64,000 nucleotides of DNA from a virus (lineage: Duplodnaviria; Caudoviricetes): positions 1 through 64,000 of IMG/VR virus record IMGVR_UViG_3300021255_004321. One strand, 5' to 3'. The number at the start of each line of letters is the position of its first letter. Within the stretch, counting starts at the first letter, position 1. Under the pieces are notes generated by a model. The model saw nothing but the letters and a program-made list of their open reading frames with translations. It was not told where the DNA came from and did no database searches. A program made the translations under genes and the position numbers. Below are positions 13,952 through 62,000 of the stretch, in pieces.

Positions 13952-14809
13952 CTACTGTAAAAGCTGCAATACATTTTGTGACTGACTGTTTGCCTGTGCA
14001 AGCATTGCAGTTGAAGCCTGCTGAAGGATTGAGTTCTTTGTGAAGTCAACCATTTCTTTTGCCATATCAGCATCGCGAATAATGCTTTCTGATGAAGTCA
14101 TATTCTCTGCTGCAACATTGATACCTTTTGACGCCATCTCCATTCTGTTCTGAACAGCACCAAGGTCAGCTCTCTGTCTGTTTACATTCTTCAATGCTTC
14201 ATCGATTGTTGCAAGTGTACGGTTTGCTTCTTCAGTATCAGAAACTGATACGAGAGCGCCGTCTTCACCATCCTGTCCCTTTCCACGAAGTCCCAAAGAT
14301 TCAGCAGTTGCAGATGCAATGTTAATCTTGATGTTCTGGTCAACATTTGCGCCAACTTGGAAAGTAATTGTATTGTCGGCTTCTTTTGCGAAACGACCTG
14401 TCAACATATTGTAGCCATTGAATTGAGCAGTAGATGCGATACGGTCAACTTCAGCAACGAGCTGTGAAACTTCTACCTGAATCTGCATTCTGTCCTCATC
14501 GCTGTAAACACCGTTTGAAGCCTGAACAGCAAGTTCACGGATACGCTGCAAGATGTCAGTTGTTTCCTGCAAATAACCTTCAGTTGTCTGAATGAATGAT
14601 ATGCCGTTCTGAACATTTTTTGAAGCCTGATTGAGACCACGAATCTGACTTCTCATTTTTTCACTTACGGCAAGATTTGCGGCGTCGTCTCCGGCGCGGT
14701 TGATTTTCTGACCACTTGAAAGTTTTTCCATTGACTTCTGCAAGTCAATTGAATTCAAGTTTTCCTGACGAGCTGCAAAGATTGAGCTCATATTGTGATT
14801 TATAATCAT
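13952..14809 (-). CDS. flaB: Spirochete-type flagellin (filament core FlaB)
   Basis: [71 protein letters not shown]; 285 aa, lacks D2/D3 as in Treponema FlaB. Confidence 0.97.
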
Positions 14810-29484: not shown

Positions 29485-30531
29485 TTAATATTTACCATCA
29501 GCGGTAATGTGAGCAAGTTTTCGATATACGAATGGGAATGTTGCAGAAAGTGGGTCTGCACTGTCGTTCTTAAACTGTATACTTGAACTTCTTCCTAAGA
29601 AGCGGCAATCGTGGAAAATATATCTTTGAACTCTGTCAGTCTTAAATGATTCTGTAGGCGACTTTACAATCTTTACATCAGTTTCACCAAACCCAACTGT
29701 TCCCATAAGGTCGTGATAACGAGAGAATGTAAAGTAGTCAGCATCATATTCAACGACAATGTCCAAGAGTTTACCTTTGCCATTTACTTTACGCATTGCA
29801 ATACCTAAAAAGTTGTAGAAGTTTTTTCCTTCAAGTGGGTGCAGTGGAGAATTTTCTATGAAGTCTTTTCTTTTTCTTTCTGCTGCCCAACAATCTGCAT
29901 TAAGAGCGTGGAAAGCATCAAGAACATACATATTTTGGTCAAGTCTTATTGTAAGGTCCAACTTTGTGTTTCTTTCATAACGGCCTACGACTTTATTTAT
30001 TGTGTGGCCTGCATATTGAATTGTGCCTGTGCTTTGTTTCTTTTGAGGAAACTCTATCCCATCAATTCTTGTGCCTATCAAAGACCATCTTTGCTCAAAA
30101 GGAGTTGAGAGAATGTTGCGTCCTGAGTCGTATGTTACTCTTTCAATGTTTTTTGATACATCAACATCAGTAATGTCTTTTCCGTTATCAACTAATATGA
30201 AATAAACATTATACATATTAGGCATAAAGTCAGGTTCTTGCGACATTAAAACTTCAATAGGTGTTATAGAATCTTCAATCTTTGTAACATCTTTTAAGTT
30301 CTTAATCCAATTTATTTCGTATTGTTCTTGTCCTTCGATAGGAGAAAGTGTTGGCTGAAAATTATCAATCTCTTTTATGTCAGTATAGTCAACTTCAGTA
30401 TTAAGCTTGTGCTCAGTGAGATCATCATTATCTATACGAGTTGTCTTTTTTGTATTTGTTACATCTTCCAATGTATATTCTTGTGAAACATCATCAAGAT
30501 GAACTTCATTGATTTGAGTGTAGTCAACCAT
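29485..30531 (-). CDS. Tail-tube-fold protein with N-terminal extension
   Basis: IDGIEFPQ..IQYAG, LDLTIRLDQ, YIFHDCRF..IQF..PLSATFPFVY. Confidence 0.55.
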   Translation of the reverse strand: MVDYTQINEVHLDDVSQEYTLEDVTNTKKTTRIDNDDLTEHKLNTEVDYTDIKEIDNFQPTLSPIEGQEQYEINWIKNLKDVTKIEDSITPIEVLMSQEPDFMPNMYNVYFILVDNGKDITDVDVSKNIERVTYDSGRNILSTPFEQRWSLIGTRIDGIEFPQKKQSTGTIQYAGHTINKVVGRYERNTKLDLTIRLDQNMYVLDAFHALNADCWAAERKRKDFIENSPLHPLEGKNFYNFLGIAMRKVNGKGKLLDIVVEYDADYFTFSRYHDLMGTVGFGETDVKIVKSPTESFKTDRVQRYIFHDCRFLGRSSSIQFKNDSADPLSATFPFVYRKLAHITADGKY

Positions 30532-30546
30532 AATCTAATTAGTCAT

Positions 30547-30570
30547 AAAAAAGGAGGCCGAAGCCTCCTT
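30547..30570 (-). terminator. Intrinsic terminator after recA
   Basis: C(UUCG)G hairpin plus U tract. Confidence 0.85.
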
Positions 30571-30602
30571 GGAGTTTATTATGTCTACATTATGAATGTA
30601 TT

Positions 30603-31793
30603 CTACGCTTCATCTGCTGCTTCGTTTTCCTCAGCCTGAGCAACAAGTTTCTCGTATTCTTCTTTAGAGAAGTTCTGTTCTGCCCACTGTTCTTCGTCAG
30701 CAGTATTTTCCATACCTTCAATCTCATTAGAGATGATGTCCATAATTACATTCTTAATTGCATCCCATTCTTCAGGTTTTACTTCACCTGACTGAATTGC
30801 TTTTACGAAAGCGTCTTTTCCGTGGTAATTCCAACCAAAGTTATTCTTTGAATTGTAGTAACCCTTTGAGCGGCAGTCAACAAGTTTAAGTAATCTTGGG
30901 TCTTCTGCAAAGTCATACAAGAAGTCAACATATTCTCCATCAGAATTGAAGCCGCCTTTGTAGTAAAGGTCCATTTCACATTCACGGAATGGAATACCTG
31001 TCTTGTTCTTCATATTGCGGACCTGCATATGAATACCTACAACTTTTGAGCCTTCTGTAAGGTTTTCAATCTTACGAACACGGTTAAGAGTTGAAGCAAC
31101 ATATTTCAAAGCGTATCCACCAGTTGTTGCGATTGCGTGAGACATTGTATTCATCTGAGCACGCTCTTGTGAAATAACAAACATTGTTGTGTGGTAGTTG
31201 GCACAAAGAATGTTGAAACGATTACAGAAGTCTTTCAAAGCTTTTGCATTGTTACCGAAGTTTGCTTTGTTGAATTCATCATCAAGAACTGTCTTTGTTA
31301 CTGACATTGACTCAGAGTCAAAAATAACACAAGCAACTGTGTTTGACTTAATCATCTGCTCGAGAGCAAAAGCGCCTTCTTCAAGGTTATCAGGTTGCAA
31401 CAATGTAAAGTGAGCATCTTTGTTGATTGAGCCATCTGGGTTTACCAAAGATGTTACATCAAGACCGTTTTCTTTTGCGTGGTCTGGGTCGAAAGAACGC
31501 TCAAAGTCCATATAAACAACCATATCGTGGTCAGCAAGTTCTGGGAACTGTTCTCCCAAGTGTTTCTGAAACTGACCTGCAATATAAGTACAAATTGTAG
31601 ACTTACCGCCCGACTCAGGTCCAATGTAACGGTGAACTGCTCCGATCTTAATACCGCCACCATACATAAAAGAAAGACGAGGAGAATCAAGTCTCAACAT
31701 CTTTTTAAGAGTATTTGAATCTGCAGGCTTAATTGCGTTTGCACATTTCTTCTGAACTGCAGCAACCGCCTTCAAAAAATCTGGACTAGCCAT
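30603..31793 (-). CDS. recA: RecA/UvsX recombinase
   Basis: GPESGGKST, YMDFERSFD, VIFDS, ISQER, TTGGYALKY, KNKTGIPFR. Confidence 0.93.
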   Translation of the reverse strand: MASPDFLKAVAAVQKKCANAIKPADSNTLKKMLRLDSPRLSFMYGGGIKIGAVHRYIGPESGGKSTICTYIAGQFQKHLGEQFPELADHDMVVYMDFERSFDPDHAKENGLDVTSLVNPDGSINKDAHFTLLQPDNLEEGAFALEQMIKSNTVACVIFDSESMSVTKTVLDDEFNKANFGNNAKALKDFCNRFNILCANYHTTMFVISQERAQMNTMSHAIATTGGYALKYVASTLNRVRKIENLTEGSKVVGIHMQVRNMKNKTGIPFRECEMDLYYKGGFNSDGEYVDFLYDFAEDPRLLKLVDCRSKGYYNSKNNFGWNYHGKDAFVKAIQSGEVKPEEWDAIKNVIMDIISNEIEGMENTADEEQWAEQNFSKEEYEKLVAQAEENEAADEA

Positions 31794-31880
31794 TTTTCCT
31801 CCATAAATATAAAGGCCATATCAAAAGTTGATTGCTCTATTTATAGAGGACACCTTGTAATAAAAATATATTAACAGTTA

Positions 31881-32558
31881 TTAAAAACCATCAAGCAAGG
31901 CGTTGAATTCATCTTCAATCCAATTGCCACTTAAAGTACGATGCATTGTTAAATTCATACGAGGCTGTGTTCTTGGCTGAGGCACATAAGTTCCATTTGC
32001 TTTTTGTTCTTCAATCTTTTTCTGCCACTCAGGTTTCTCAGACTTTGCTTCATAAGGTGACAACTTTATGCCATCTTCACGAAGCTTTTGTCCTACGGGT
32101 TTAACTTCTGCGCCTGCTTCTTCAAACTTTTTTATAAAATCTGGCTTCCCAGGCTGATGTGGGTCTGTAACTTCAAAGTTGTGGTCACCAAAAAGACCAA
32201 TCTTTGCATCGTATTTATTCAAGAAAGCAATTGTCTTATAGTTGCCACGAATAATCATACCTTCATTTTTTGGGTTATGACATTCACCATAAATAAACTT
32301 TATATAGCCTTCTTCAGGTGTGTTACCCATTCCTTGAAAGTACTGCATATCATCAATGTCAACATCAATATAGTTGCCTCTGTTTTTTGCAACTGTAATG
32401 TGTGGCATTATTGCACCATCTTTTGTAACAGCTTCTCTTTCAGTATCTGGGTTATCTTCAACAGGCTTTGCCTCTTCCTCAACCAAGTCTTTATCAATAA
32501 GACCTAATGCTTTGAGTGCTTCAAGCTCTGTTTCTGAATATCCTTCAATGTCAACCAT
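31881..32558 (-). CDS. Hypothetical protein
   Basis: TAATG coupling to kinase stop (start MVDIEG). Confidence 0.7.
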   Translation of the reverse strand: MVDIEGYSETELEALKALGLIDKDLVEEEAKPVEDNPDTEREAVTKDGAIMPHITVAKNRGNYIDVDIDDMQYFQGMGNTPEEGYIKFIYGECHNPKNEGMIIRGNYKTIAFLNKYDAKIGLFGDHNFEVTDPHQPGKPDFIKKFEEAGAEVKPVGQKLREDGIKLSPYEAKSEKPEWQKKIEEQKANGTYVPQPRTQPRMNLTMHRTLSGNWIEDEFNALLDGF

Positions 32559-33118
32559 TACATCCCTCCAAAGATAAACGGGTAAACGTCTTGTTCCCAA
32601 ATCTCTTCAGGTGTTCTTCCGTTCAAATGAATAAGCTTCTTATCCAAAGAAGACATTTCATATGCTCTTTCGAAAGCAGCAAGTTCTTGCTTCTTCTTAT
32701 CAATGTCAAGTGAGAACGACAAACCATCGCCTCTTTTCTTGTCTCTTTCAATAACTGCTTCAGGAGTATCTGTAAACACAATCAACTTTGTTACTGGGTT
32801 ATTATGCTTTACATAATCTTTTTCATAATCGAAAACAAAGTCACCTGAATAATTACGATATATAGGTGAGTAAACTGTTTCACCAAGATGTGCACGGTCA
32901 AATATCAAAACATTTTGATTTGGAACAACTGACATCAAGCGGAACATTTCACGATAACGAATCTGTGAAGCAACTTTAATTGCATCATTTGTTTCAAGTT
33001 TAATGTTTGAATAATGAACAATGTGAACAGCTTTTGCAAGCTTCTCAAATTCTTTTTCAATAAGAGCTATCTGGGTGCCTTTACCCATAGCATCGCATCC
33101 CTCAATAATTACATTCAT
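32558..33118 (-). CDS. tmk: Thymidylate/dNMP kinase
   Basis: IIEGCDAMGKGT P-loop; IFDRAHLGETVY. Confidence 0.88.
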   Translation of the reverse strand: MNVIIEGCDAMGKGTQIALIEKEFEKLAKAVHIVHYSNIKLETNDAIKVASQIRYREMFRLMSVVPNQNVLIFDRAHLGETVYSPIYRNYSGDFVFDYEKDYVKHNNPVTKLIVFTDTPEAVIERDKKRGDGLSFSLDIDKKKQELAAFERAYEMSSLDKKLIHLNGRTPEEIWEQDVYPFIFGGM

Positions 33119-33133
33119 AAATAAATATTAACC

Positions 33134-34471
33134 TCAGTCTTTGATAATTCTGCGACCTACAGGCGCAGTTGTAGTCCCATTCAATTCTTTTTCACGAGCA
33201 TCAATAACAGGACCAAATGTATCACAAATGAAATCACCGTTAAAGTATTTGTCTTCAAGGATGTCATAAAATTGTTTCAACAACTTTGCATATTCATCAC
33301 GGTGTTCATACAAATAATCAATCTTTTCCCACATTTCTTTAGGAGAAGAAACTTTTACATAGTCTGGGAACTCTTTGAAGTAGCCATCAGTGTCATAAGA
33401 GTTCTTGTCATAAAATGGAATAATACCATAATAAACCATTTTCCAAGGCTTCTGTGTTACAAAGTTTGGAAGACGATGGTCAAATGCAGGAACATAAGTA
33501 AACATTGTTTCCCACATCTCAGGCTGCATCTGCACAATACCTTTTTCGATAAAAGTATTAGGATGCTTCTGCTTTGCTTCATCACCCCACTTTCCGTAAA
33601 CCTTTTCCTCAGGATGAATATCAAGAACCCACTTTTCAAGATAAGACAAACGGTCAGTACCATCATTCAAAGTAAGAACAAACTTTCTCTTTTTCTGATA
33701 AACATTTCCGTTTACTTCAATGTGGTCAGGATTGCTGAAATCAATCTTTGGCATATTTGCCATAAACATTCTTTCAAGTCCTGCATATTTGAAATGCAAC
33801 TTGTGTTCAACATACTCACCTGAGTTGTATCTTACAAGACGCTTTACAGAATACTTGTCACTTTCAATCTGGGAGAATGTAAAGATTTCGTGATTGATAA
33901 TATCTTTATGATTTGATGGCACATATCTTGGGTCTTCATTGATATTATACCAAGGGAAGCCCTGCTTATTCAAAAGATGTATCATCGGTCCACAATAATT
34001 TGCTGCCATCTGCATTGGGATTGCTTCAGTTGGTTTTGTTGCACAAATAATACCTTCACCACCGACTGATACTGAAGCATCAGGTCCTTGCATAAAAAGA
34101 CCTAAGTCGAACTTCAAACCAAGATGGTCAACATACTCATCAAGTGTTCGCCAAGCTTCACATCCTTTCTTATGTGTATCAGTTCTTTCCTTACATTTTT
34201 CTTTTCCTGCGAACTCTCTTGCCTGAGCGTGTAAGTCAATAATGTTACTTGGGATGTCAACTTTCTTAAAGACGTTTCCAAACCCGATTGCACTGTTCTT
34301 CTTTTTGAAATCAGCAAAGTCAGATGCACCTACAATATAAAACTTATGCTGCGGGTATCTTTTTGCAAGAGTAAAATAAAATATTTTTGGGCTGTCATCA
34401 CCTGCATAAATCGACCAAGACTTTTCATCAAAGTACATTGAACGACCAAATTTTCCAATCGCAATATTCAT
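33134..34471 (-). CDS. GT-B glycosyltransferase, resembling phage DNA glycosyltransferases
   Basis: MNIAIGK start, INEDPRY, VYGKW, VTQKPWKMVYYGIIPF, VSSPKEMWEKI; gene context. Confidence 0.6.
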   Translation of the reverse strand: MNIAIGKFGRSMYFDEKSWSIYAGDDSPKIFYFTLAKRYPQHKFYIVGASDFADFKKKNSAIGFGNVFKKVDIPSNIIDLHAQAREFAGKEKCKERTDTHKKGCEAWRTLDEYVDHLGLKFDLGLFMQGPDASVSVGGEGIICATKPTEAIPMQMAANYCGPMIHLLNKQGFPWYNINEDPRYVPSNHKDIINHEIFTFSQIESDKYSVKRLVRYNSGEYVEHKLHFKYAGLERMFMANMPKIDFSNPDHIEVNGNVYQKKRKFVLTLNDGTDRLSYLEKWVLDIHPEEKVYGKWGDEAKQKHPNTFIEKGIVQMQPEMWETMFTYVPAFDHRLPNFVTQKPWKMVYYGIIPFYDKNSYDTDGYFKEFPDYVKVSSPKEMWEKIDYLYEHRDEYAKLLKQFYDILEDKYFNGDFICDTFGPVIDAREKELNGTTTAPVGRRIIKD

Positions 34472-35028
34472 TAGTTGTAACCTCTTACGATATAATAATT
34501 TATTCCTGCAGCCATTGCTGCTTCAATACCTGTCTTTGAATCTTCAAACACAATACAAGTTGAAGGTATCTCATCGAAGTGTTGCATAGTTTTAATGTAG
34601 CACTCAGGTGATGGCTTTGTTTCAACAACATCTTCCTGTCCTACAATAATATCAAACACATCAGTAATCTTGAAGTATTCCAAGATATTATTTATATTAA
34701 CTTTCGATGCTGCAGACACCAAAGCAATTTTCCACTTTCTTGACTTAAGGCCTTTAAGCATTTCAATCAACGGAGTATTAAGGGCACCATTTTTGATATA
34801 CTTTTTATAAAGTTCCTTTTTCTCATCGTGTATCTGCTGCATAACTTCGGGCGTTATTCTAGGGTCAAGCTGTTTCAAAAAGATTTTATAATTAAGCCCG
34901 TTCCATTCTTTGCAATACTGTTCGTAACCAACATCATACCCGTGCTTTTCGCAGGCTTCTTTGTAAGCAAAGTAATTTATGTTATTTGTGTTGACGAGTG
35001 TACCGTCTAAATCAACCATTGCAAGCAT
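34471..35028 (-). CDS. HAD phosphatase (beta-PGM-like)
   Basis: DLDGTLVN, VSAA, KPSPECY, FEDSKTGI. Confidence 0.9.
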   Translation of the reverse strand: MLAMVDLDGTLVNTNNINYFAYKEACEKHGYDVGYEQYCKEWNGLNYKIFLKQLDPRITPEVMQQIHDEKKELYKKYIKNGALNTPLIEMLKGLKSRKWKIALVSAASKVNINNILEYFKITDVFDIIVGQEDVVETKPSPECYIKTMQHFDEIPSTCIVFEDSKTGIEAAMAAGINYYIVRGYN

Positions 35029-35031
35029 TCT

Positions 35032-35946
35032 TTATTCTCTCCAAAAATCATTTAAGTTAACATACTGTGAATAGTATCCGTTATCTTTAGGCTCAGGTAA
35101 ACAATCGAAAAGACTCTTGACATATTTTATATTATCACTGCACCAACGTTTTGTAACATCATCTTTTGCATAAGGCACAATACGATAGATTTTGAAAAGT
35201 AAGAAAATCAAAATCTTTTTCATCCTAGTGCGATTATTACCGCCAACTCTTTCCAAAAATTCTTGAGAGAATCTTCTTAAGTATTTTTTGTCATCTTCGT
35301 CGAGTTCAGTGTAACGATAAGACCAATGACATAAGCTGTCCTGAAGAACTGTTGCAATATCAATGTAAGGTGTATCAATGAATGAGTCAAGAAAGTCAAT
35401 AAGGTATAGAACTCTCGCGGCAGTAGAATATGTTTCTTTATGTCCTACGATGATATTTTCAAGAGTAAGATCTCCGTGACAGTAACCACCTTTTATGTCT
35501 CCAAGATCTTGTTCAAACTCTTTCAAGAATTCTCGAAGTTCACTCTGAAGTTCAGGAGTCTTTTTAATCATATCATCAATCTTATTTTTGAAAATTACTT
35601 TAGAATTCCAAACCTTTCCAAAAGTAAAGTTGCTTGATATAAAAGCGCCGAGGTCTTCTGCTGAAGAAATACCTTTATGTTTAAGCAACTCTTCTGCAAG
35701 TGTATCACCTTCAATAAACGGCATCGTTACTGTAACTTTCAAATCATTACCAACCAAGTCTTCTTTAATGTTCAAGACAGGCGTCCCTTCGATTGAGTTA
35801 CGAGTACCACTCCAACTTGTTGCACAATACTGTTTTTGTGCCTGTTCACGAAGTCTTGGTGCATAAGAGCCAATTGCAGTCTTTACAACCTTATCGCCCT
35901 GCTGCTCAATGTTACAACCCGAGTTTCCCTTTAAGTTCATTCTCAC
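35032..35946 (-). CDS. APH/choline-kinase-fold phosphotransferase (sugar kinase-like)
   Basis: GNSGC, VVK, CHGDLTLENI, LIDFLD. Confidence 0.85.
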   Translation of the reverse strand: MRMNLKGNSGCNIEQQGDKVVKTAIGSYAPRLREQAQKQYCATSWSGTRNSIEGTPVLNIKEDLVGNDLKVTVTMPFIEGDTLAEELLKHKGISSAEDLGAFISSNFTFGKVWNSKVIFKNKIDDMIKKTPELQSELREFLKEFEQDLGDIKGGYCHGDLTLENIIVGHKETYSTAARVLYLIDFLDSFIDTPYIDIATVLQDSLCHWSYRYTELDEDDKKYLRRFSQEFLERVGGNNRTRMKKILIFLLFKIYRIVPYAKDDVTKRWCSDNIKYVKSLFDCLPEPKDNGYYSQYVNLNDFWRE

Positions 35947-36643
35947 TTACCTCTGATTTTAATTCTTTAAGTTCATCAGGTGTTCCAAACTCAAAGTGTT
36001 CTTTAACATCAATTCGTTTCACATTGAGTAAGTAATTGTATAAGCCTGACATATAATATTCTTTTTGTGTGCCGTCATTAAAATAAAGAACTGCAGCTTT
36101 TGCAAAAATGTCCGCATTCTTAAAATAATAACAACCAAAGATTGCATAGTTTGAAACAGGATTTTTCTCAACAGTTCCTGCATACTGTGTATCTTTTCCG
36201 CCGATGTATTTGATGTAACCGAAGTGTGGCTCTCTTGACTTAAACGACATAATCGCAGCTTCAACATCTTCACTTATATCAAAGTTTTCGCAACTCATCG
36301 CGTGGTCACAATCCTGAAATACAATTGGGTCACCATCAGCAAACTGTGATATTCCTGACAAAGCAGTATACACAGGGCCGTTTAACTGATAAGGGAGAAC
36401 AGAAATTTTAGCACCTGGGAAATACTCATAAATCTTTTTATCAATCTGCCATTCATCAATATGTTCTTGAAGAACAATGAATGTTATGTCTTTCATTGGG
36501 AAAGCTCTGATTGCTGACTGCGCAGCCCACCAAAAGAATGGCTTTCCGTAAAGTTCAATAAGTGGCTTTGGTACAGTTATGTCGTCTTTCTTAAATCTTG
36601 AACCTGCGCCACCGCAAGGTATAACAATATGCACTTTGTTCAT
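35912..36643 (-). CDS. Sugar-phosphate nucleotidyltransferase (NTP transferase)
   Basis: IPCGGAGSRF, PKPLI, DCD, EKNPVS, FGTPDEL. Confidence 0.88.
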   Translation of the reverse strand: MNKVHIVIPCGGAGSRFKKDDITVPKPLIELYGKPFFWWAAQSAIRAFPMKDITFIVLQEHIDEWQIDKKIYEYFPGAKISVLPYQLNGPVYTALSGISQFADGDPIVFQDCDHAMSCENFDISEDVEAAIMSFKSREPHFGYIKYIGGKDTQYAGTVEKNPVSNYAIFGCYYFKNADIFAKAAVLYFNDGTQKEYYMSGLYNYLLNVKRIDVKEHFEFGTPDELKELKSEVSENELKGKLGL

Positions 36644-36673
36644 AAAATGATATTAACATCCTATATAAAAATT

Positions 36674-36700
36674 AAGAGGAACTTGCGTTCCTCTTTTTTT
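36674..36700. terminator. Intrinsic terminator
   Basis: AAGAGGAAC/GTTCCTCTT stem with T tracts. Confidence 0.7.
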
Positions 36701-36714
36701 GATAAAGTTCTTAA

Positions 36715-37236
36715 TTAAAGCTCAGGAGCATTTAAGATGTCATTATCAAGTTTCTCGAAAGCCTTCTTACGGAATTCGATAATGTCTTTATAATGCTCTT
36801 TATACTTTCTGATAGCAGCATTAGTTGCGGCAACCTGAATGTTGTAGTACTGGTCGTCAAGCTCTTTCTGCTTTGCTTCGATTTCAGTCTTTTCTTTTAC
36901 TTCTTTCTGTGCGCCTTCGCAGTCGCAAGAGAATGTAATTGAATCCTTACCTACAAGAACAGCTTCACCCTCAACCTTTGCTTTCTTTCCACAGTAAGGG
37001 CAATAAACAGCATCTTCGTAAATAGTTTTGATTTCTTTTGCGAAGTCTGTAAGTTCCTTTTCCTGTTCAGGAGCAGGCTGTCTTCCATTAAGCTGCTTCT
37101 TTACATTACGCCAATTTCTTAACTTGGCTTCCTGATCTTCGTTAATGCAAAGTGCAAATGTTGAAGCACCCGACTTTGCAATAACTTTGCCCAAAAGTTC
37201 CTTCTGAGCATCTGTCAAAATAGTATCTTTTGCCAT
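36715..37236 (-). CDS. Hypothetical protein with CPYC/CDC Zn motif and coiled coil
   Basis: GGAG SD; ORF in operon. Confidence 0.7.
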   Translation of the reverse strand: MAKDTILTDAQKELLGKVIAKSGASTFALCINEDQEAKLRNWRNVKKQLNGRQPAPEQEKELTDFAKEIKTIYEDAVYCPYCGKKAKVEGEAVLVGKDSITFSCDCEGAQKEVKEKTEIEAKQKELDDQYYNIQVAATNAAIRKYKEHYKDIIEFRKKAFEKLDNDILNAPEL

Positions 37237-37239
37237 TTG

Positions 37240-37557
37240 TTAAACTCCCATTAAAGTTGCTTGTTCAGACTCGGCATCTTCAGGAAGAACAAAACCAAAT
37301 GAGTTTTCGATTGTCTTCCAACCTGTCTTTTCTGTAACAGCTGCGATAACTTCTTCTTTAGCTTTCTTGCCAATTGAAGGAGCATCAATAAGAATGAACT
37401 TATCATTGATAGCTTTCATTCCTCTTTTCTTGTTCTGAAATGTTTCTCCGCTTTCGATAGGAGCATTCAAAACGTCACGAATTACTTCGTTTGCAGAAGG
37501 TGTGTTCTCATATCTGAGAAAAAGTTCACCTTTGCAAAAATCTTCATACATTACCAT
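37240..37557 (-). CDS. Hypothetical protein
   Basis: GAGG SD. Confidence 0.65.
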   Translation of the reverse strand: MVMYEDFCKGELFLRYENTPSANEVIRDVLNAPIESGETFQNKKRGMKAINDKFILIDAPSIGKKAKEEVIAAVTEKTGWKTIENSFGFVLPEDAESEQATLMGV

Positions 37558-37626
37558 TAAGATAACCTCTGAAATATTGTTTAGACAACAATCAACGATT
37601 GTGCCGCATATATTGCGGCAACATCT

Positions 37627-38226
37627 TTATTTTGCTTTCGTTCCAGTCGAGCCGAATCCGCCCGCGCCGCGATTGTTATATTTGAAGTCCTTATAGAATT
37701 CATTCTCTGAAATCTTGTTGTCAGCTTCAACATCAACTTTCTCTTCAGTATAAATGCGGGCTTCCTCAGTGCAGTAAACACGAGGCGCAAGCTGTGTTAT
37801 TTTATCGTCTTCATAGATGTAAAGATAATCATCAGAAGTGTTTGTCAAAGACAAATGAATTTCACCCTGATAGTTTGGGTCAATTTCACAAGCTCCCACA
37901 TCAAGACCTTTCTTTGTTGCAATGCCTGACTTGTTTTCAACATACAAGTCCATCTGTAAACCGTAAGAGATAAGCGGCATCGAAAGTTCAAGATATGATT
38001 TAATTCCTGATGGAATACAAACTCTTTCGTGTGGACCAACCATAATGCATTCTTTACCTGCATCATCTTTTGTAATGTTTACTGCTGCCTTTGGATTCTT
38101 TTCAGCTTCCTCAGCGCAAGTCTTTTTGAATGCATCATTGAACTTAGGGACAAAGAAATCAAATCCTACATTACCGTCTTCACGATAAGGGTCTGCAACA
38201 TCCCTAACTTTAAGAAACTTTATCAT
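37627..38226 (-). CDS. dut: Trimeric dUTPase
   Basis: GFDF, NKSG, EIDPNYQGEI, ITQL, RGAGGFGSTG. Confidence 0.92.
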   Translation of the reverse strand: MIKFLKVRDVADPYREDGNVGFDFFVPKFNDAFKKTCAEEAEKNPKAAVNITKDDAGKECIMVGPHERVCIPSGIKSYLELSMPLISYGLQMDLYVENKSGIATKKGLDVGACEIDPNYQGEIHLSLTNTSDDYLYIYEDDKITQLAPRVYCTEEARIYTEEKVDVEADNKISENEFYKDFKYNNRGAGGFGSTGTKAK

Positions 38227-38257
38227 TATTCCATAACCTCCAAGTTATAGAATAATA

Positions 38258-38650
38258 TTAACACTGTTGTTGATTAGGGCCCTCTTCGTAATTAAGCCAC
38301 TGCCAATCAGCAGAAATCATTTCAAAAGTTTTATCAAGGTCCGACTCTAAAGGAGAAAGTCGGCCGAGCAAGTTAATTCTGTATTTCATCCAAAGATTAT
38401 AATACTCAATTGCAATATCAAAGAAGGCGACTGGGTTTTCACCCCAAGTGTTCACAACATATCTGTCTTCAGTCAACTTGAGAAACTCTTTAAGTTCTTT
38501 ATAAAAGTTGCGAACATCAGCCGCAGCAAGTTCCCAATCGAAATCTTGCTTTTTATATATTATTCTTGTTGCGGCTTCCTTAAATCGTTGTAAGTGTCTT
38601 TTGACCCTTAATCTTAAATCTTGTATTTCATTGTCTTTAAGCTGTCTCAT
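38258..38650 (-). CDS. Tandem paralog family member 4
   Basis: WGENPVAFFDIAIEYY. Confidence 0.7.
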   Translation of the reverse strand: MRQLKDNEIQDLRLRVKRHLQRFKEAATRIIYKKQDFDWELAAADVRNFYKELKEFLKLTEDRYVVNTWGENPVAFFDIAIEYYNLWMKYRINLLGRLSPLESDLDKTFEMISADWQWLNYEEGPNQQQC

Positions 38651-39020
38651 TTTCTTCTCCACTTTCAAAAGGGTTTGTTAAAAAATACTTAAAAAAGACA
38701 TCTCTTACTTCTTGTGTTTGTTGATAACCACTCCAAAGTGTTGCATCAACAGGCTGCCCAACCTGAGAAAGGTGTTCTCTGTATAAATCATTTATTTTTT
38801 CAAACCAAGCTTCAGAAAAAGCAATTACAACATCATAATAAGATCTTGGGTTTTTAAGAAATTGAAAAAAGTTGTATGTGTCACTAATTGTTTCATAAAG
38901 AGGAACAAGGATTTCTTGAGCAAACGTATAAAATGGCTCATCGATGCTTTGAGCAAAATAAGAATGGAGTTTTGTCTTCAGGACTTCATTGATGCCTGTA
39001 ATCTTATTTCGTATATCCAT
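38637..39020 (-). CDS. Tandem paralog family member 3 (divergent)
   Basis: KNPRSYYDV; AGGAG SD before MDIRN. Confidence 0.6.
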   Translation of the reverse strand: MDIRNKITGINEVLKTKLHSYFAQSIDEPFYTFAQEILVPLYETISDTYNFFQFLKNPRSYYDVVIAFSEAWFEKINDLYREHLSQVGQPVDATLWSGYQQTQEVRDVFFKYFLTNPFESGEENETA

Positions 39021-39384
39021 AAGCGCTCCTATAAAGATCTGCTTTATGATGTACATACGCAATCGACTGATGAAAAAATAATTCATCATCAGTCAAACCA
39101 CTAATATATTCTTCATAAAAAGGCAACCAAACTTGTTTGTAATAAGCATCACAAACATCATAAAAAGAAACAACATTGTGTTTCCATTCATTTATCTCTC
39201 TTGGGCTCTGAAGCAATTCAAGGAACTCTTTCAAAGCTTCATATGTTTCTTTTATAAAATCTTCAGGGTCAGTACACTTAAGATAAAATCTAACGCAAGG
39301 ACGAAGTGTTTTTATAAGGCTTTCACGAAGCTTGTTTTCTACTGAAAAAGTCAGTGCGTTTTTGAGCAATTGCATCTTTCTCAA
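39004..39384 (-). CDS. Tandem paralog family member 2
   Basis: WKHNVVSFYDVCDAYY. Confidence 0.7.
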   Translation of the reverse strand: MRKMQLLKNALTFSVENKLRESLIKTLRPCVRFYLKCTDPEDFIKETYEALKEFLELLQSPREINEWKHNVVSFYDVCDAYYKQVWLPFYEEYISGLTDDELFFHQSIAYVHHKADLYRSAYGYTK

Positions 39385-39739
39385 TCTCCTCTATTTTATC
39401 AAGCTTTGTATCAAGCACATAATTGTAATGTATTTTCTTAAAAGTTTCTGTGAGCCAAATTTCCTCACGAACTAAGTTGTGTTCATTTTTATAAGGGATC
39501 CATATCTGTTCCCAATAAGCATTGCAGATGTCAAGAAAAGCAATTGGGTTTTCCCTCCATCCATCTATGCAGTTCATATTATTAAAAAGATTAACAAGTT
39601 CTTGTAAATTGTCAAATACTTCAACAACATCTTTATCAAGAGTGTCCCTTTTATCACGATAGTTGAATACGCGGAACACGCTTGAGATATGAACTTGAAG
39701 TTCATAAAGTAAATGAAATGCTTCTTTCCATTCAATCAT
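39323..39739 (-). CDS. Tandem paralog family member 1
   Basis: WRENPIAFLDICNAYW; GAGG SD before MIEWK. Confidence 0.7.
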   Translation of the reverse strand: MIEWKEAFHLLYELQVHISSVFRVFNYRDKRDTLDKDVVEVFDNLQELVNLFNNMNCIDGWRENPIAFLDICNAYWEQIWIPYKNEHNLVREEIWLTETFKKIHYNYVLDTKLDKIEEIEKDAIAQKRTDFFSRKQAS

Positions 39740-39754
39740 ATTCAACCTCAAAGC

Positions 39755-39780
39755 AAAAGCCCGCACTCGAAGCACGGGCC
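39755..39780 (-). terminator. Intrinsic terminator
   Basis: GCCCGTGC/GTGCGGGC stem plus U4. Confidence 0.6.
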
Positions 39781-56088: not shown

Positions 56089-59000
56089 ATGATGAAAGAA
56101 GGTCTTACATTTATAAGTGAAAGAACAGGTCAGCTTAGATATTCTGACATTGCGACAGAAGAACAGTGGATTCAGCAAACAAGTACATACATTCCAATTC
56201 AAACTATCAAAAGAGGACAGCCTGTTTCAATTGCAACAAAAGAAGACTTGGAAATTGTTGCAAATGGTGATGAAGCTTTGTATGAAGCACTCCTTAATTC
56301 ATCAGACTCTTATGTAGTTTTAACAAACCCAACAAGACATACAAACACAATCGGTCTTGCTTTGGAATATACTGACGGACATCACGAGCTTGTTGATGGA
56401 AAACTTGAAACTGCTCCAAAGATTCATATTATCAACAATGGTAAATACATTGAAGATGCCAACTATTATGCACAGGCTTTTACAGAAGAAGATTCTTATA
56501 CAGTTGCAGGTGATGCCGACTCAGAATATGAGGAATACTGGCCGCCATTCTTTGATGATTATGAAAACTCAATTGGTAAGAAAATCTATGTAAAAGGTTC
56601 AGCTGACGGTGAACTTACACTTGTAAAAGAAGAAGCATACCTCGCTCACAACAATGTTATCGTTCTCGGTTTCGTAACAGACGCTAAACTCAAAGATAAA
56701 GAAAATGAAAAAGATGTTGGCGCAATCGAAGTTCAGGTACAAGGCGATGACCGCGGCCTTATTGATGCAACAATCTTTGAAGCTGTTGTAGGTGAAGACT
56801 TTGTTATAGGTGATACAAAAGTTCAAGCAAACGGCGAAACAAACTGTAAGACAAAAGTATTTGCTTTAGGTTCAGAAGATGATGAAACATTTGAGTTCTC
56901 ATTCAACATCAATCAGCTTGTTAATACTCCAATGCCTAAAGGTTTTATCGCTCTTCAAAGAATTGACGGTAAAACATACATCATTCAGACAAATGGCGAA
57001 ATAAGTGAAAGCCTTCTCAATGAAGGTGAAGCTTATGATTATAATGACCGCGCCTTCTATCAAGTTGCAAAGTATTATGCTGCAAATTATAATGAGTCAA
57101 TCGAAAAAGTAGACCTTGCTGTTACTGAAGCATCAGCAACAAACTTGATTTCAAAGTTGGAAGCTGAACTTAAAAATGCAATGGCTTACATCTCACAAGG
57201 CGAAAATGTTTCATTAAAAGATGGCCATACATCAAACATTACAGACCTTGATTTTGATGAGTCTGAACTTGGCACAAAGCATCGTCTTATTTGTAGAGCA
57301 AACGACATTGGTGGTTACTTTGATGTTTATGTTTCATCAAACTTAACAGGTATTTTATCTGACCTCAATATCAAGTCACACGGTTCATTCTTCAACAGAG
57401 GATATGCTGTTCTTGCAGACATTCGTAATCCTAAGAGACAGAACATTATTGGTATTTACAACTCAGGACATACTGGACTTGTAAAGAAAGGTGAAAATGC
57501 AATTTTCTTAAAGCAGGGTCTTTTCAGAGATGACTCAAATCCTTTTGAAGTAGGTGAAAGATACTATCTCGGTTCACACGGTAACATTTTCAAAGTTCCT
57601 CAAGAATACTACAACTCAATCATCTCAATCGGTTATGCACAATATAAAGATGCTTTAATTGTCGATTGTTGTGATGTAAGACAATATAACAATGGTGACC
57701 TTCCTGTAGGCTATATGAAGCCTTCTATCAAAGGTGAAGCTGAATTCGGCTTCTTGTTGATGAACGGTCAGCCTGTAGAATATGAAGGACACGAACTTCT
57801 TTATAAGAGACTTAAGAACTGGTATGATGAAGCTGACTTGAAGCTTGGTTCATATTCTTTCGGTGAAGTAGAGAAAGCAGGATTTATTATCCCAAAAGTT
57901 CAGTATCAAAAACATACAGGTGAAGAAGAGTCTTATACTCCTGCACAGATTAAGTGGCTTGCAGAAGGCGTTTATAAAGAAATGCCAAGAACACCTTTTG
58001 TTCGTCGCTTCGTTGATATTGATTATCCAAAGCAAGTTGTTGATAACAACGGAGAAGAAGAGGAAATCATCTTAGCACATCAGGCAAGAATACCTGACAT
58101 TGACATTACTCCTCTTATGATTTATGGTCCTGAGGAAGACCGTTTGCAAATCCCAGATTTGGAGAATCTTGACATCAAGTTCTTCGCTGACTTGTCAGAT
58201 GGCAATGTTCCTGAATGGGTACAAATTGACCCAGGCTTCCATTCATTTGATGCACTTACATACTTTGGTTATAAATGGACTGTAACACAAACTAATGAGC
58301 CTTCTGACTCAAATCCTTACGGAACTTGGGTATTGAGAGCAGCTTATAACGGAACACAGGGTCCTAACGAAGTTGATAACGATGATACTGCTATGGGTAT
58401 TTGTTATCAAGCTGACCCATTCTCTCCACCTGTTTCACTTGCAGGTCGTCGTGCAAGAATCTTTGTTGTAAAACACGATTACTACTCAAGACAGTTTGAT
58501 GTTGAAGCTCTTTTCAAAGATTATGTAAAAGAGTCTTTGGTTGATGCAACTGACCAACCTTGGGTAAGCCACGCAATCTCAGGTAACGCTGTTCGTCAGG
58601 ACCTTTACAGAAGAGTTTACACAAAAGACTTATTACTTGGTTCAACTGAAAGAAGAGCTGATGTAAATGGTTATATTCAGTCAATCAGATTGAACGGTGA
58701 AGCTCTTGAGAACGAAGATGAGTTGGCTGCATATACTCTCAACACAAATCTTCGTTTGAAGAATCCTGCAGCTGCAAACGGCGCATTCCTTGATTACTAT
58801 AACGGAATATTAAAGTATTATTATCAGAATGAAACTGAAGATAGCGCAATCTCACATAAAGCAGACTTACAAAAAGACATCTTAAATGAGCCTTACGCAT
58901 TGCTTCCTTCTTATATGTTCAAAGCTCATAAAGAGTTGTTGGTTAAAAATGCAACAGCAAAAGACTTTACAGATCATCCTCACGGAATTGTAAATGATGG

Positions 59001-62000
59001 TTATGAAGGCAACCTTAATGCAAAAACTTTACAATCTGCAAACTTGGGTTACCCACAGCATATCTTGTCAAACAATGTAACAGAAGATGTAAATGAAGTT
59101 TATGTTGAAAAAGAGAATGCTGCAATTGCAATCACAATCCCTTATACACAAAAGACTACTACAGGTGATTACAGAACTCGTCTTGGTAACTTGACAGAAT
59201 ACAGAGACGCAGACGGTAACCTTATAAGACATACAATCAAAACTTATGGTAACACATCTGAACTTGTAGAAGATATTGATATTCGTAATGGCTTTGATTA
59301 CGTTCAGAGAATACGCGGTGGTGTTGGCAGCAACAAGTCAATGAATATCAAGTATGGGTTCTCTGACGACGAACACGATATAACTTTTGAAGATGATAAC
59401 GGAAACCCATTAAGCTTGTATGGTAACTTTGTTCAAACATCTTCAATTAAAAAGAAGTATGTTCTTTCAAGATTTGAAGGTAAGAACTCTCCTGCTATCG
59501 GAAGTGAGTTCTCAGATAAATATATCGGTGACGGTGAAGAGCAAGTATTAAATGAAGCTTTGCAGGCAATTTATGAAATGCCTCTTGCAACATTCAAGTA
59601 TAACAGAGAATACTTATCTGAAGACCCTTGGTACAAGAGATACTTCGGTATTATCGTTGAAAGAATTGCTGCAACAAAAGAAAACTTTGCAAGTGATGCA
59701 GAGTTGACAAACAAGACTGCATTAGACGAAGTTGAGTATACTTATACTGATGAAGAGAAAGCTTCTATTGCAGAATACCTCAAACTTGTAACTGACAACC
59801 CAGAACAGGGTATGCGTGAGTCAACTGTTATTGGTATTCTTTTGAAAGCTGCAAAAGAAACACAGGAAAGATTGCTCAACCTTGAAGTATCAACATACGG
59901 TAAGGATTCTCCTACACTCCCAGGTGAGGACGAAAAGAATCCAAACTTTACAGCAAATGACCAAAAGTCAACAATCGCAGGTCTTAACCGTTTGGTTAAA
60001 GCATTGTGTCGTGAAGTGTTCCAAAATGCTGACCCAACAAATATCAATGAACTTGGCGGTTGGTCTGAAGATGGCGAAAACTATTCACGCCTTGACTTGA
60101 TTGATAAAGAAGTAAACGGTGAAGCTGCAAAGGATGATAACCAAGAAAGAATCTTCCTTACAAAGGATATTGGTAAAACATATCCTGATGTTGCAGATAT
60201 TACAGAAGAAGCTACACCTAATGAGGCGCTTGTTCCTGATACTGCAAATGATAACGACTTCGGCGGCAAAGATGCAGTTAAGTACCCAACAGATACAACA
60301 TATACTTCAAACCCAGAAGATATTGATGACTTTGATGGTATTAACGATGCAATCAACAGAATCGTAGCTAAACTCAATCAACTCACAATTAACATCAACG
60401 GTGAGGACGACATCAAAAAGAATCCAAAGAAACTTGATTACATTCGTGGAACTTTGGTAACACTTCTTCGTGATGTTTACTCTGATGGTTCAGTTGATGA
60501 TGTTGAAAATGGCATATATGTTAAGAAAGGCCTTTCAAGAATTGATAAGATTCTTCAGGACCTTTACAACTTCGATTTAACTTACGGTGCAACAAGAGCA
60601 AAAGTAAATACATACAACGGCAAAGACTTGTATGGTGTAGAAAATAATGAGTCAGCAAGTACAGAAATGATTGACTCATTCAGTTCTCGTTCACCTGAAA
60701 AGATTGAAGATATTTTTGGCAAGGCATCAATTCTTGATGTTATAATTGAACTTCTCTCAGGTAATGAAAACAACTTGGTTAAGACAAAGTTGACACCTTG
60801 GAAAGACCTTGCAAACAATGAAAACAATTGGAAAATAAACGCAGACAACACAGTAGCAACAACATACGATAATACTGCAGAACTTGAAAACAATAAAAAC
60901 TCTCGTAATCATTATACTGTTCTTCAGAGACTTGACGACATTGAAAAAGCATTGACTTTGATGTTCTCAAGATTTGCAAACAAAACTGATTTCACAAAAG
61001 ATGCTCCTCGTATCGGTGAAGGCGCTTATGACGGTGTAACATCAGTTGATGATTATATGAAGTTCTTGAGACGCAACTCAGGACTTTGTTTCCACAGCGC
61101 AGGCTTGTATGCAGATAAAGTTGAAAACGATGAAAGAACTTCTGCAGCCAAAGCAATTACTGCTGAAGATTGGGTAAGACCTGTTCACGACACAGTAGAC
61201 AACTTCGATGTTTACGATACAATCTATGATGCAATCAAACGTATTAAGAACAGTGAAATGAACTTGGGCTACAACAATGCTAAGCTCGGTACTGATTACG
61301 ATACATATAAGAACGGTAACGCAAGAATTACAAAAGATGCTTACGAAACTCTTGCTCCAAACGGTGAGGTTCCAACTCCTGATTATACTGTAACATCTGA
61401 TATGAGAGCAGTTCTTAAATTGCTCTACGGTTCTGACTTGGCAAATGCAGATGCTTCAGATAACAAGACAGGTTCAGTACACTTCAATGTTACTGATGAA
61501 GCAAGTGACAACTTCAAGAACTCTCCTAACGGTGTTTCAGTAATTGATGCATTATATAAGATGTTATATAATGTGCCTCAAGCTTACAACTATGATGCAG
61601 GCGCAGGTACATCATCAAGATTATCAGGAACAGTTGATGCTATATTTGAAAATGCAAAAGGCTTTGACCCAGCAGTTCCAAAAGCTCATATTGCTGTAGG
61701 TGAAAGTGAGTCTCCTGTAGCAGACGGACATCGTAAAGGCTTCATCTTGCAAAATAAAGATGGTAACGCTTACAGAAAGAATCGTATTGATGTTCTTGAA
61801 GATTGGGTAAAAGCTATTTATAGATATGTTGGCTTTGGTAGCACAGAAGATCCATATTACTTCATCGGTGACCTTCACCTTACTTTCGAAGATAGAGATG
61901 ATGGCGATAAAGATGTATTCGTAAATGGAAAACAGTACTGCACAACAGCTTACAACAAGAAGTACATCACAACTTCTGGTAACTATACACTTGCAGAGAT

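Follow-up and report, generated by a model that had tools for sequence, protein, structure and literature searches.

A probable DNA hypermodification module with its own sugar-activation genes in an uncultured rumen jumbo phage

The DNA analysed here (the window) covers positions 1 to 64,000 of the 91.8-kb IMG/VR viral record IMGVR_UViG_3300021255_004321. This record is rated 31% complete and is therefore a fragment of a roughly 300-kb phage; the source is an uncultured rumen jumbo phage. In the list of open reading frames (ORFs) of the window, five closely spaced minus-strand ORFs occupy 32558-36643, and they encode a sugar-1-phosphate nucleotidyltransferase (NTP-transferase), an APH-fold kinase, a HAD phosphatase, a GT-B glycosyltransferase (GT) and a thymidylate-kinase-like (Tmk-like) nucleotide kinase (Table 1). 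Along the window, the full order is RecA / orf239 / Tmk-like kinase / GT / HAD / kinase / NTP-transferase, all on one strand, and two terminator-like hairpins, found by consensus scan only, flank this unit, which is read from the NTP-transferase through orf239 to the RecA/UvsX-like recombinase. The genes of the five-gene cluster are tightly coupled: the junction sequences showed that the NTP-transferase stop lies 29 nt within the kinase ORF, that 3 nt separate the kinase stop from the HAD start, that the HAD stop and the GT start overlap in TAATG, and that a 15-nt gap lies between the GT and the Tmk-like gene. The kinase ORF as a whole spans 35032-35946 (302-304 amino acids (aa)), and the ATG at 35940 is its likely start, which gives a protein of 302 aa. 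An earlier reading of the window (the original prediction) had described such a five-gene cluster near recA and dut, and we found all five ORFs in place with family or fold matches that agree, as well as the two neighbouring genes.

Table 1 Features in and around the predicted hypermodification unit (positions in the window)
Feature	Position	Strand	Basis
Terminator-like hairpin after recA, probable unit end	30551..30570	-	consensus scan only
RecA/UvsX-like recombinase, closing gene of the unit, anchor for synteny with T4 and RB69	30603..31793	-	Pfam RecA E 1.7e-28; phrog_97 UvsX-like E 3e-51
orf239, ORF of 239 aa in the same transcription unit	31881..32600	-	ORF list
Thymidylate-kinase-like nucleotide kinase, 186 aa	32558..33118	-	Pfam, PHROG, P-loop
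GT-B glycosyltransferase, predicted DNA (5-hydroxymethylcytosine) glycosyltransferase, 445 aa	33134..34471	-	AlphaFold model, fold search
HAD-IA (beta-phosphoglucomutase/YqaB-like) sugar-phosphate phosphatase, 185 aa	34471..35028	-	Pfam HAD_2, NCBIfam
APH/choline-kinase-fold small-molecule kinase, 302 aa from ATG at 35940	35032..35940	-	Pfam APH, motifs, fold
Sugar-1-phosphate nucleotidyltransferase (NDP-sugar pyrophosphorylase), 243 aa, leading gene of the unit	35912..36643	-	Pfam, PHROG, PDB
Terminator-like hairpin just upstream of the NTP-transferase start, divides the unit from the dUTPase group	36674..36695	-	consensus scan only
dUTPase-family protein, 199 aa, adjoining upstream unit, nucleotide-pool accessory	37627..38226	-	Pfam dUTPase E 4e-7; phrog_135 E 3e-14

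The GT was modelled with AlphaFold from a 40-sequence alignment, and the model (predicted local distance difference test (pLDDT) 92.3, predicted template modelling score (pTM) 0.90) has a GT-B fold with two Rossmann domains. In the Foldseek check proposed in the original prediction, ranks 1-6 in the PDB were all entries of T4 DNA beta-glucosyltransferase (BGT) (E 4.8e-8 to 1.4e-6). Alignment with VIA-align also placed T4 BGT as the nearest solved structure (Z 21.1, root-mean-square deviation 3.8, 313 residues aligned, 14% identity), and the next families were BshA (Z 18.1), the DNA arabinosyltransferase of phage HY126 (16.8) and T4 AGT (16.1). Rank 2 in BFVD was an annotated DNA beta-glucosyltransferase (E 9.5e-24). 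At the profile level, hhalign aligned the GT family with T4 BGT at E 4.6e-4 over 232 columns, in the C-terminal domain only, and this alignment pairs NFVTQKPW of the window GT with NFITLRVW of BGT (a common NF[IV]T..[RK].W stretch), the near-invariant R274 with a BGT Arg, and the invariant K341/W343 with the R.W stretch of BGT. Of the functional residues of BGT, a catalytic Asp and UDP-binding Arg residues, the catalytic one in the N-domain has no partner in this alignment. Judged from fold and profile, the GT probably works like BGT, as a remote relative that seems to fall outside the family at sequence level, and by analogy it is predicted to transfer a sugar to 5-hydroxymethylcytosine (5hmC) in duplex DNA.

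At E <= 1e-3, a search of 1.84 billion proteins gave 612 cluster representatives of the GT family, which is present in just 5 of 50,697 deposited phage records; it is almost absent from isolated phages. One of them, Enterococcus phage Planchet, has its GT homologue in a neighbourhood that also contains a nucleotide kinase, a thymidylate synthase/pyrimidine hydroxymethylase, a dUTPase and two further GTs. A scan of IMG/VR with the GT found 143 relatives, the best 80 of which were kept, as 79 viral loci with flanks of ±10 kb, and because near-identical phages would be counted repeatedly, the GTs were merged at 70% identity into 27 lineages. A gene like T4 gp42, the dCMP hydroxymethylase, was found in these flanks in 50 of the 79 loci by tblastn and in 49 by hidden Markov model, which corresponds to 19/27 lineages. 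An NTP-transferase-domain gene stands beside the GT in 21/27 lineages, often 0-700 nt away, a dCMP deaminase is near the GT in 13/27, and a kinase detectable with the profile of the window kinase is found in 8/27. The partner genes are on the strand of the GT and mostly 0-4 kb from it. Most partner NTP-transferases are fusions of about 500 aa with a C-terminal APH domain. The flanks of 8/27 lineages hold no hydroxymethylase, and several of these are short or truncated loci; lineages L005/L009, L030 and L079 have no NTP-transferase in the fetched flanks. Among 22 whole records, 18 contain PF00303 (thymidylate synthase family), and the four without it are 25-38% complete. The co-occurrence is not due to chance, as many independent phage lineages have this gene set next to their GT homologues.

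In a distant member of the family, the 262-kb record G013 (97% complete; L043 6661-13866), the GT is preceded by HAD / SIS isomerase / ribulose-phosphate 3-epimerase / NTP-transferase-APH fusion and followed by C5 cytosine-methylase-like protein / Tmk-like kinase / gp42-like hydroxymethylase. The HAD, isomerase and epimerase point to a pentose, and by its gene content G013 apparently has a self-contained pentose (arabinose-type) pathway built on a 5hmC-type enzyme. One 259-kb viral contig of a sister phage has two GT-family paralogues at opposite ends (L007 and L030), which are 53% and 30% identical to the window GT, and this hints at two-step or alternative glycosylation in that phage.

Close relatives of the window phage carry the hydroxymethylase itself. 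The 188.7-kb record G001 is colinear with the window at 88-96% nucleotide identity, and its ThyA homologue lies about 63 kb upstream of the GT, which would place the gene about 30 kb past the left end of the window. This enzyme matched T4 dCMP hydroxymethylase (PDB 1b49) at E 3.4e-38, with about half of the aligned residues identical to T4 gp42 over about 170 residues (by eye), and it retains the catalytic Cys and an Asp matching T4 D179; a dCMP deaminase gene is near it. In T4 gp42 itself, C148 is catalytic and D179 specifies cytosine, and PDB mutant entries differ at exactly these residues. A 306-kb contig (G023 C130, 306,108 bases; L085/L165) is 85-92% identical to the window in nucleotide sequence and holds the whole cluster plus a hydroxymethylase 97% identical to that of G001. 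This contig, which is binned in a 'Candidatus Fimenecus' metagenome-assembled genome, probably represents a nearly complete relative of the window phage and not bacterial DNA; as a clue to the host, the bin assignment is weak at best. At the position of E. coli ThyA D169, all 49 of the 49 GT-linked hydroxymethylases and that of G001 have Asp, like T4, whereas gp48 of RB69, a 5-hydroxycytosine (5hoC) synthase, has Asn. According to Lee et al. (2026, PMC13326640), 5hoC synthases carry Asn at this position. The Asp therefore makes 5hmC, not 5hoC, the predicted acceptor.

The Tmk-like kinase would belong to the same branch of the pathway. It matched Pfam Thymidylate_kin at E 6.3e-6 (26.4 bits, slightly below the cut-off of 27) and phrog_761 at E 1.6e-12, and its P-loop GxxxxGKGT is intact. 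Its position beside the GT is that of gp45 in RB69 and gp78 in DLP3, and it is predicted to convert 5-hydroxymethyl-dCMP (5hm-dCMP) to 5hm-dCDP.

The other three enzymes of the cluster form a sugar-activation triad. The NTP-transferase matched Pfam NTP_transf_3 (E 5.3e-6) and NTP_transferase (E 1e-4), each narrowly above the cut-off, as well as phrog_3980 (E 3.1e-31) and an NDP-sugar pyrophosphorylase in the PDB (4evw, E 8e-9), and its translation has the GGxGxR signature at the N-terminus. The kinase matched Pfam APH above the cut-off (E 1.3e-6). Its HGDxxxxN and IDF motifs (H157, D159, N164 and D184) are invariant in 35 homologues, which means that the HxDxxxxN catalytic loop and DFG-like Asp of APH/choline-kinase-like kinases are present throughout these sequences. 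The kinase model (pLDDT 92) matched maltokinase (Z 17.6), methylthioribose kinase (17.2) and glucosamine kinase (16.7) best, and choline kinases and APH(2'') came within 1 Z of the best match (Z 16-17.6 overall), so the fold names no sugar; the enzyme is probably an anomeric sugar kinase. Its family gave 1355 matches, including a kinase on a 301-kb contig that is 100% identical to that of the window, and tblastn against the 50,697 phage records found a single weak match only. The HAD protein matched Pfam HAD_2 at E 3.2e-33 and the NCBIfam PGMB-YQAB subfamily at E 2.6e-30, under the equivalog cut-offs, and motif I of HAD-superfamily phosphatases, DxDGT, is at residues 6-10 (VDLDGTL, residues 5-11). 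It was also compared with beta-phosphoglucomutase, where it scored 88 bits against an equivalog cut-off of 189, so it was not classed as a mutase.

A kinase-family scan of bacterial genomes returned 80 loci, among them the phage-like 306-kb contig (L085). Of the remaining 79 loci, 25 have close homologues of all three triad enzymes together as separate ORFs, like in the window, with identities of 41-45% for the NTP-transferase, 42-49% for the HAD and 29-34% for the kinase. These triads are in loci for surface polysaccharides (capsule or exopolysaccharide) of gut bacteria such as Lachnospiraceae, Prevotella/Bacteroidaceae and Akkermansia, and the sampled neighbours include a Wzx-type flippase, a GT1 glycosyltransferase and an acyltransferase. 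A BGT-like GT or a Tmk-like kinase was found in none of the bacterial loci except the phage-like contig. From these sequence comparisons, the phage appears to join a BGT-like DNA glycosyltransferase to a capsule-type sugar-activation triad, and the donor module would be capsule-derived.

The donor-making genes also differ among close phages. In the sister lineage L006-L010, the GT is 53% identical to that of the window, and Tmk, RecA and dUTPase are 70-85% identical, but the position of the triad is taken by a Hydrolase_3-type HAD, a 133-aa ORF and a 542-aa NTP-transferase/kinase fusion. A non-orthologous HAD and NTP-transferase/kinase at the same place indicate selection for a function beside the GT. 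Comparison with G001 showed a divergence hotspot at 35050-36450, where nucleotide identity falls to 67-80% in the kinase gene and 78-85% in the NTP-transferase gene, against 95-99% in the flanks. Together with the gene swap in the sister lineage, this drop suggests turnover of the donor-making genes.

As for which sugar is used, the original prediction had proposed a search for a sugar isomerase, and this search came out empty: no SIS or SIS_2 isomerase domain was found in the fragment records G000, G001 and G002 or on G023 C130, so the substrate is probably a host sugar or sugar-phosphate. Neither a GT1-family glycosyltransferase nor a second copy of this GT family was found in G000-G002 (about 212 kb, fragments), and a single GT of this family without a GT1 gene fits a mono- or homo-oligosaccharide. 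A more specific idea can be offered only tentatively, and we would not lean on it: 5hmC may carry a capsule-type sugar or derivative that is new to DNA (not glucose, arabinose, heptose, Kdo or N-acetylhexosamine), whose donor would come from the captured bacterial triad, a swappable cassette that could be diversifying among sister phages under host-defence pressure.

We consider it likely that the unit of NTP-transferase, APH-fold kinase, HAD phosphatase, GT-B and Tmk-like kinase (with orf239 and RecA) is a DNA hypermodification module that puts a self-made sugar onto 5hmC. The analysis shows the gene identities, the folds, the synteny, the family-wide hydroxymethylase linkage and a triad homologous to a bacterial polysaccharide module, and from these we infer that DNA is the substrate, in which order the sugar steps run, the kind of sugar and the protective role. 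In the proposed mechanism, 5hm-dCMP would come from a gp42-like dCMP hydroxymethylase whose gene would lie about 60 kb away outside the fragment, and the Tmk-like kinase would help to take this nucleotide to the di- and triphosphate, by which 5hmC would be incorporated in the phage DNA. The kinase, the HAD phosphatase and the nucleotidyltransferase would turn a host sugar or sugar-phosphate into a nucleoside-diphosphate sugar (NDP-sugar), and two routes are conceivable: the kinase may phosphorylate C1 of a sugar-phosphate, after which the HAD enzyme removes the distal phosphate and the transferase adds the nucleoside monophosphate, or the HAD enzyme may free the sugar, from which the kinase makes the sugar-1-phosphate. 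The BGT-like GT-B would then use this donor to glycosylate 5hmC in double-stranded DNA at its hydroxymethyl group, and the glycosylated 5hmC would guard the genome against restriction and CRISPR nucleases. Two parts of the original prediction gain ground here. That the phage makes its own NDP-sugar agrees with the homology of the triad to the bacterial polysaccharide triad and with functional parallels in RB69/HY126 AfhE/AfhF and the heptosyl-5hmC pathway (see below), and that the sugar goes to a DNA base is supported by the BGT-like fold and the hydroxymethylase linkage; the residues of the hydroxymethylases also allow the base to be named as 5hmC.

Several points weigh against this reading. 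The GT has no Pfam (E <= 0.01), PHROG or NCBIfam match and so no sign of sequence-level membership in the Pfam family of T4 BGT, the hhalign probability of its profile against T4 BGT is just 33%, and GT-B enzymes of many functions score Z 15-18 against the model. The hydroxymethylase search proposed in the original prediction succeeded only in part: it was positive in G001 and G023 C130, and the enzyme is a usual neighbour of the GT family, but PF00303 had no match in the 91.8-kb record of the window itself, because this fragment ends about 30 kb short of the position of the gene in G001; for this exact phage, the presence of the enzyme is thus deduced from its relatives. No MazG-type dCTPase was found in the fragment records G000 and G001, so full replacement of cytosine is unproven. 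The nearest relatives of the triad serve bacterial surface polysaccharides rather than DNA, and the window contains a flagellin gene, so a protein acceptor is conceivable.

Alternatively, the GT may act on 5hmC DNA with a host nucleotide sugar (e.g., UDP-glucose, as in T4), and the triad may be an unrelated auxiliary metabolic module, e.g., for remodelling of host capsule precursors, which merely shares the operon. The flippase and GT1 genes around its closest bacterial relatives would suit such a role, and the lineages L005/L009, L030 and L079 indicate that the GT can exist without an NTP-transferase in its flanks. But the same-strand pairing of GT and NTP-transferase-domain gene in 21/27 lineages, the TAATG overlap of HAD and GT in the window, and the non-orthologous HAD and NTP-transferase/kinase kept at the same position by the sister lineage all tie sugar activation to the GT, and we regard the use of a host donor as unlikely.

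The donor could also be a CDP-alcohol or phospho-alcohol (choline-, glycerol- or ribitol-phosphate type), with the GT-B transferring a phospho-group onto hydroxymethylated DNA in the manner of TagF. The kinase does match choline/ethanolamine kinase families as well, the NTP-transferase has weak IspD-type and cytidylyltransferase matches in NCBIfam, and TagF appeared at Foldseek rank 47 for the GT. However, the best NCBIfam and PDB matches of the NTP-transferase are sugar-1-phosphate transferases, anomeric sugar kinases are among the top fold matches of the kinase (tied with others), and the GT is far nearer to BGT than to TagF, which makes this donor quite improbable.

Finally, the acceptor might be a protein, such as the phage flagellin or another protein of the virion, or a glycan of the host envelope instead of DNA. 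In favour of this are the flagellin gene and the protein O-glycosyltransferases Gtf3, GtfC and OGT (GT-B) among the fold matches at Z 15-17. It is nevertheless very unlikely, since T4 BGT leads the fold matches by about 3 Z units over the rest, dCMP hydroxymethylase, dCMP deaminase and nucleotide kinase genes are tied to the GT family (19/27 lineages), and the operon is set within replication and recombination genes (RecA, dUTPase, and a helicase and polymerase near by). The flagellin alternative raised in the original prediction is accordingly not favoured: the gene exists, but the GT family tracks hydroxymethylases. The flagellin gene itself, a 285-aa ORF at 13952-14809 (-) with a Flagellin_N match of E 2e-44, is about 19 kb from the cluster and is an unusual cargo for a phage.

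Other genes surround the unit. Within it, orf239 had no Pfam, PHROG or NCBIfam match, and only the two closest relatives conserve it. A 173-aa ORF immediately upstream of the cluster (36715-37236, -) has weak zinc-ribbon matches to Lar-like restriction-alleviation families that are sub-threshold (Pfam E 0.008, PHROG E 0.007) but suggestive, given the adjoining DNA-modification operon. Four successive, partly overlapping, paralogue-like ORFs of 126-150 aa occupy 38258-39775 (-), with the dUTPase on one side and a basic protein of 118 aa on the other, and their translations have a common stretch of the W..NP.AF.D....Y...W type. Just downstream of recA, G001 carries an IS200/IS605 element (L003 14069-15708) with a TnpA Y1 transposase (142 aa) and a TnpB/Cas12f-like protein (405 aa); its site corresponds to about 30574-30580 of the window, from which the element is absent, and the T4 counterpart of this spot holds the homing endonuclease segA. 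A second TnpB-like gene is at L082 13183-14529. Among ten large neighbouring ORFs, the only PHROG matches were a helicase and a DNA polymerase near the operon, which indicates that the phage is distant from characterised ones; very large ORFs encode 2344 aa at window 56089-63123 (+) and 3910 aa at genome 70553-82285 (+). Contigs from RNA libraries of two studies cover parts of recA, orf239, Tmk-like kinase, GT, kinase and the dUTPase group (window 30000-38500), and the runs matching this region are all from ruminant or other animal gut metagenomes. The RNA-library contigs are a weak hint at expression, and DNA carry-over is possible. All of the 20 runs listed consist of assembled contigs, which carry no signal of modified bases at the level of single bases.

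Phages use glycosylated hydroxymethylcytosine to keep restriction enzymes and CRISPR nucleases from their DNA, and it elicits dedicated type IV defences. Each new DNA sugar adds to the picture of this arms race and offers a potential enzymatic tool to label 5hmC. The locus is a testable candidate with one GT, three donor-making enzymes and one nucleotide kinase, and the analysis defines a GT family whose consistent partners, across many lineages, are gp42-type hydroxymethylases and sugar-activating enzymes. The link to the triad of bacterial capsule loci suggests a source from which phages obtain new DNA sugars.

Compared with T4 (uvsX / segA / beta-gt / 42; glucosyl-5hmC, GT63), the GT lies beside a UvsX-type recombinase in both phages with like order and strand, the fold of the window GT-B is closest to T4 BGT, and the lineage of the window phage has a gp42-like dCMP hydroxymethylase. 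However, the window GT is about 95 aa longer and has no match to the BGT Pfam family, the window phage adds its own sugar-activation genes where T4 uses host UDP-glucose, and the hydroxymethylase of its lineage is about 60 kb off, whereas T4 gene 42 is adjacent to beta-gt.

The arabinosylating phages RB69, DLP3 and HY126 have uvsX, Tmk-like kinase, GT, HAD, APH-fold kinase and NTP-transferase in the order and strand arrangement of the window. The RB69 region reads uvsX / tmk-like gp45 / GT gp46:47 / ThyA homologue gp48 / ... / HAD gp51 / kinase and NTP-transferase gp52:53 / arabinose-5-phosphate isomerase gp55. As Lee et al. (2026, PMC13326640) describe them, AfhE of these phages is a bifunctional NTP-transferase and kinase and AfhF is a HAD phosphatase; by the same logic, a kinase, a HAD phosphatase and a pyrophosphorylase would supply a DNA glycosyltransferase in the window phage. 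The fused architecture of AfhE matches that of most NTP-transferase partners of the GT family, and the kinase domains are homologous (window kinase against gp52, hhalign probability 89%). But phmmer against the RB69 arabinosylation proteins found no similarity for the window NTP-transferase, HAD or GT, and gave only E 3.5e-4 in a tiny database for the Tmk-like kinase. The two systems differ further in that the hydroxymethylase of the window lineage has the Asp expected for 5hmC and RB69 has the Asn of 5hoC synthases, an arabinose-5-phosphate isomerase (SIS) was not found in G000-G002 or the 306-kb relative, the kinase and NTP-transferase are separate ORFs in the window and fused in RB69, the HAD is of another subfamily, and the GT is BGT-like where that of RB69 is GT4-like.

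The third comparison is with contig 53, a metavirome 'subclass III' cluster, where, according to Pyle et al. (2023, bioRxiv 10.1101/2023.12.21.572611), a HAD-APH protein, a cytidylyltransferase and a T4-betaGT-like GT-B are all required for heptosyl- and diheptosyl-5hmC in E. coli. The window has the same kinds of part (HAD, APH-like kinase, nucleotidyltransferase and BGT-like GT-B), a likeness in gene content. By that description, 5hmC in the contig 53 system arises after replication by a cytosine methyltransferase and a TET-like dioxygenase, whereas a gp42-type route at the nucleotide level is predicted for the window phage, and HAD and APH are fused there and separate here. No description of this particular gene combination was found in the literature searched, and the supplements of PMC13326640 and bioRxiv 10.1101/2023.12.21.572611, which were outside the search, may hold related clusters. 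The kind of system is known from T4, from RB69/DLP3/HY126 and from the clusters of Pyle et al., and this locus has a distinctive part list within that kind.

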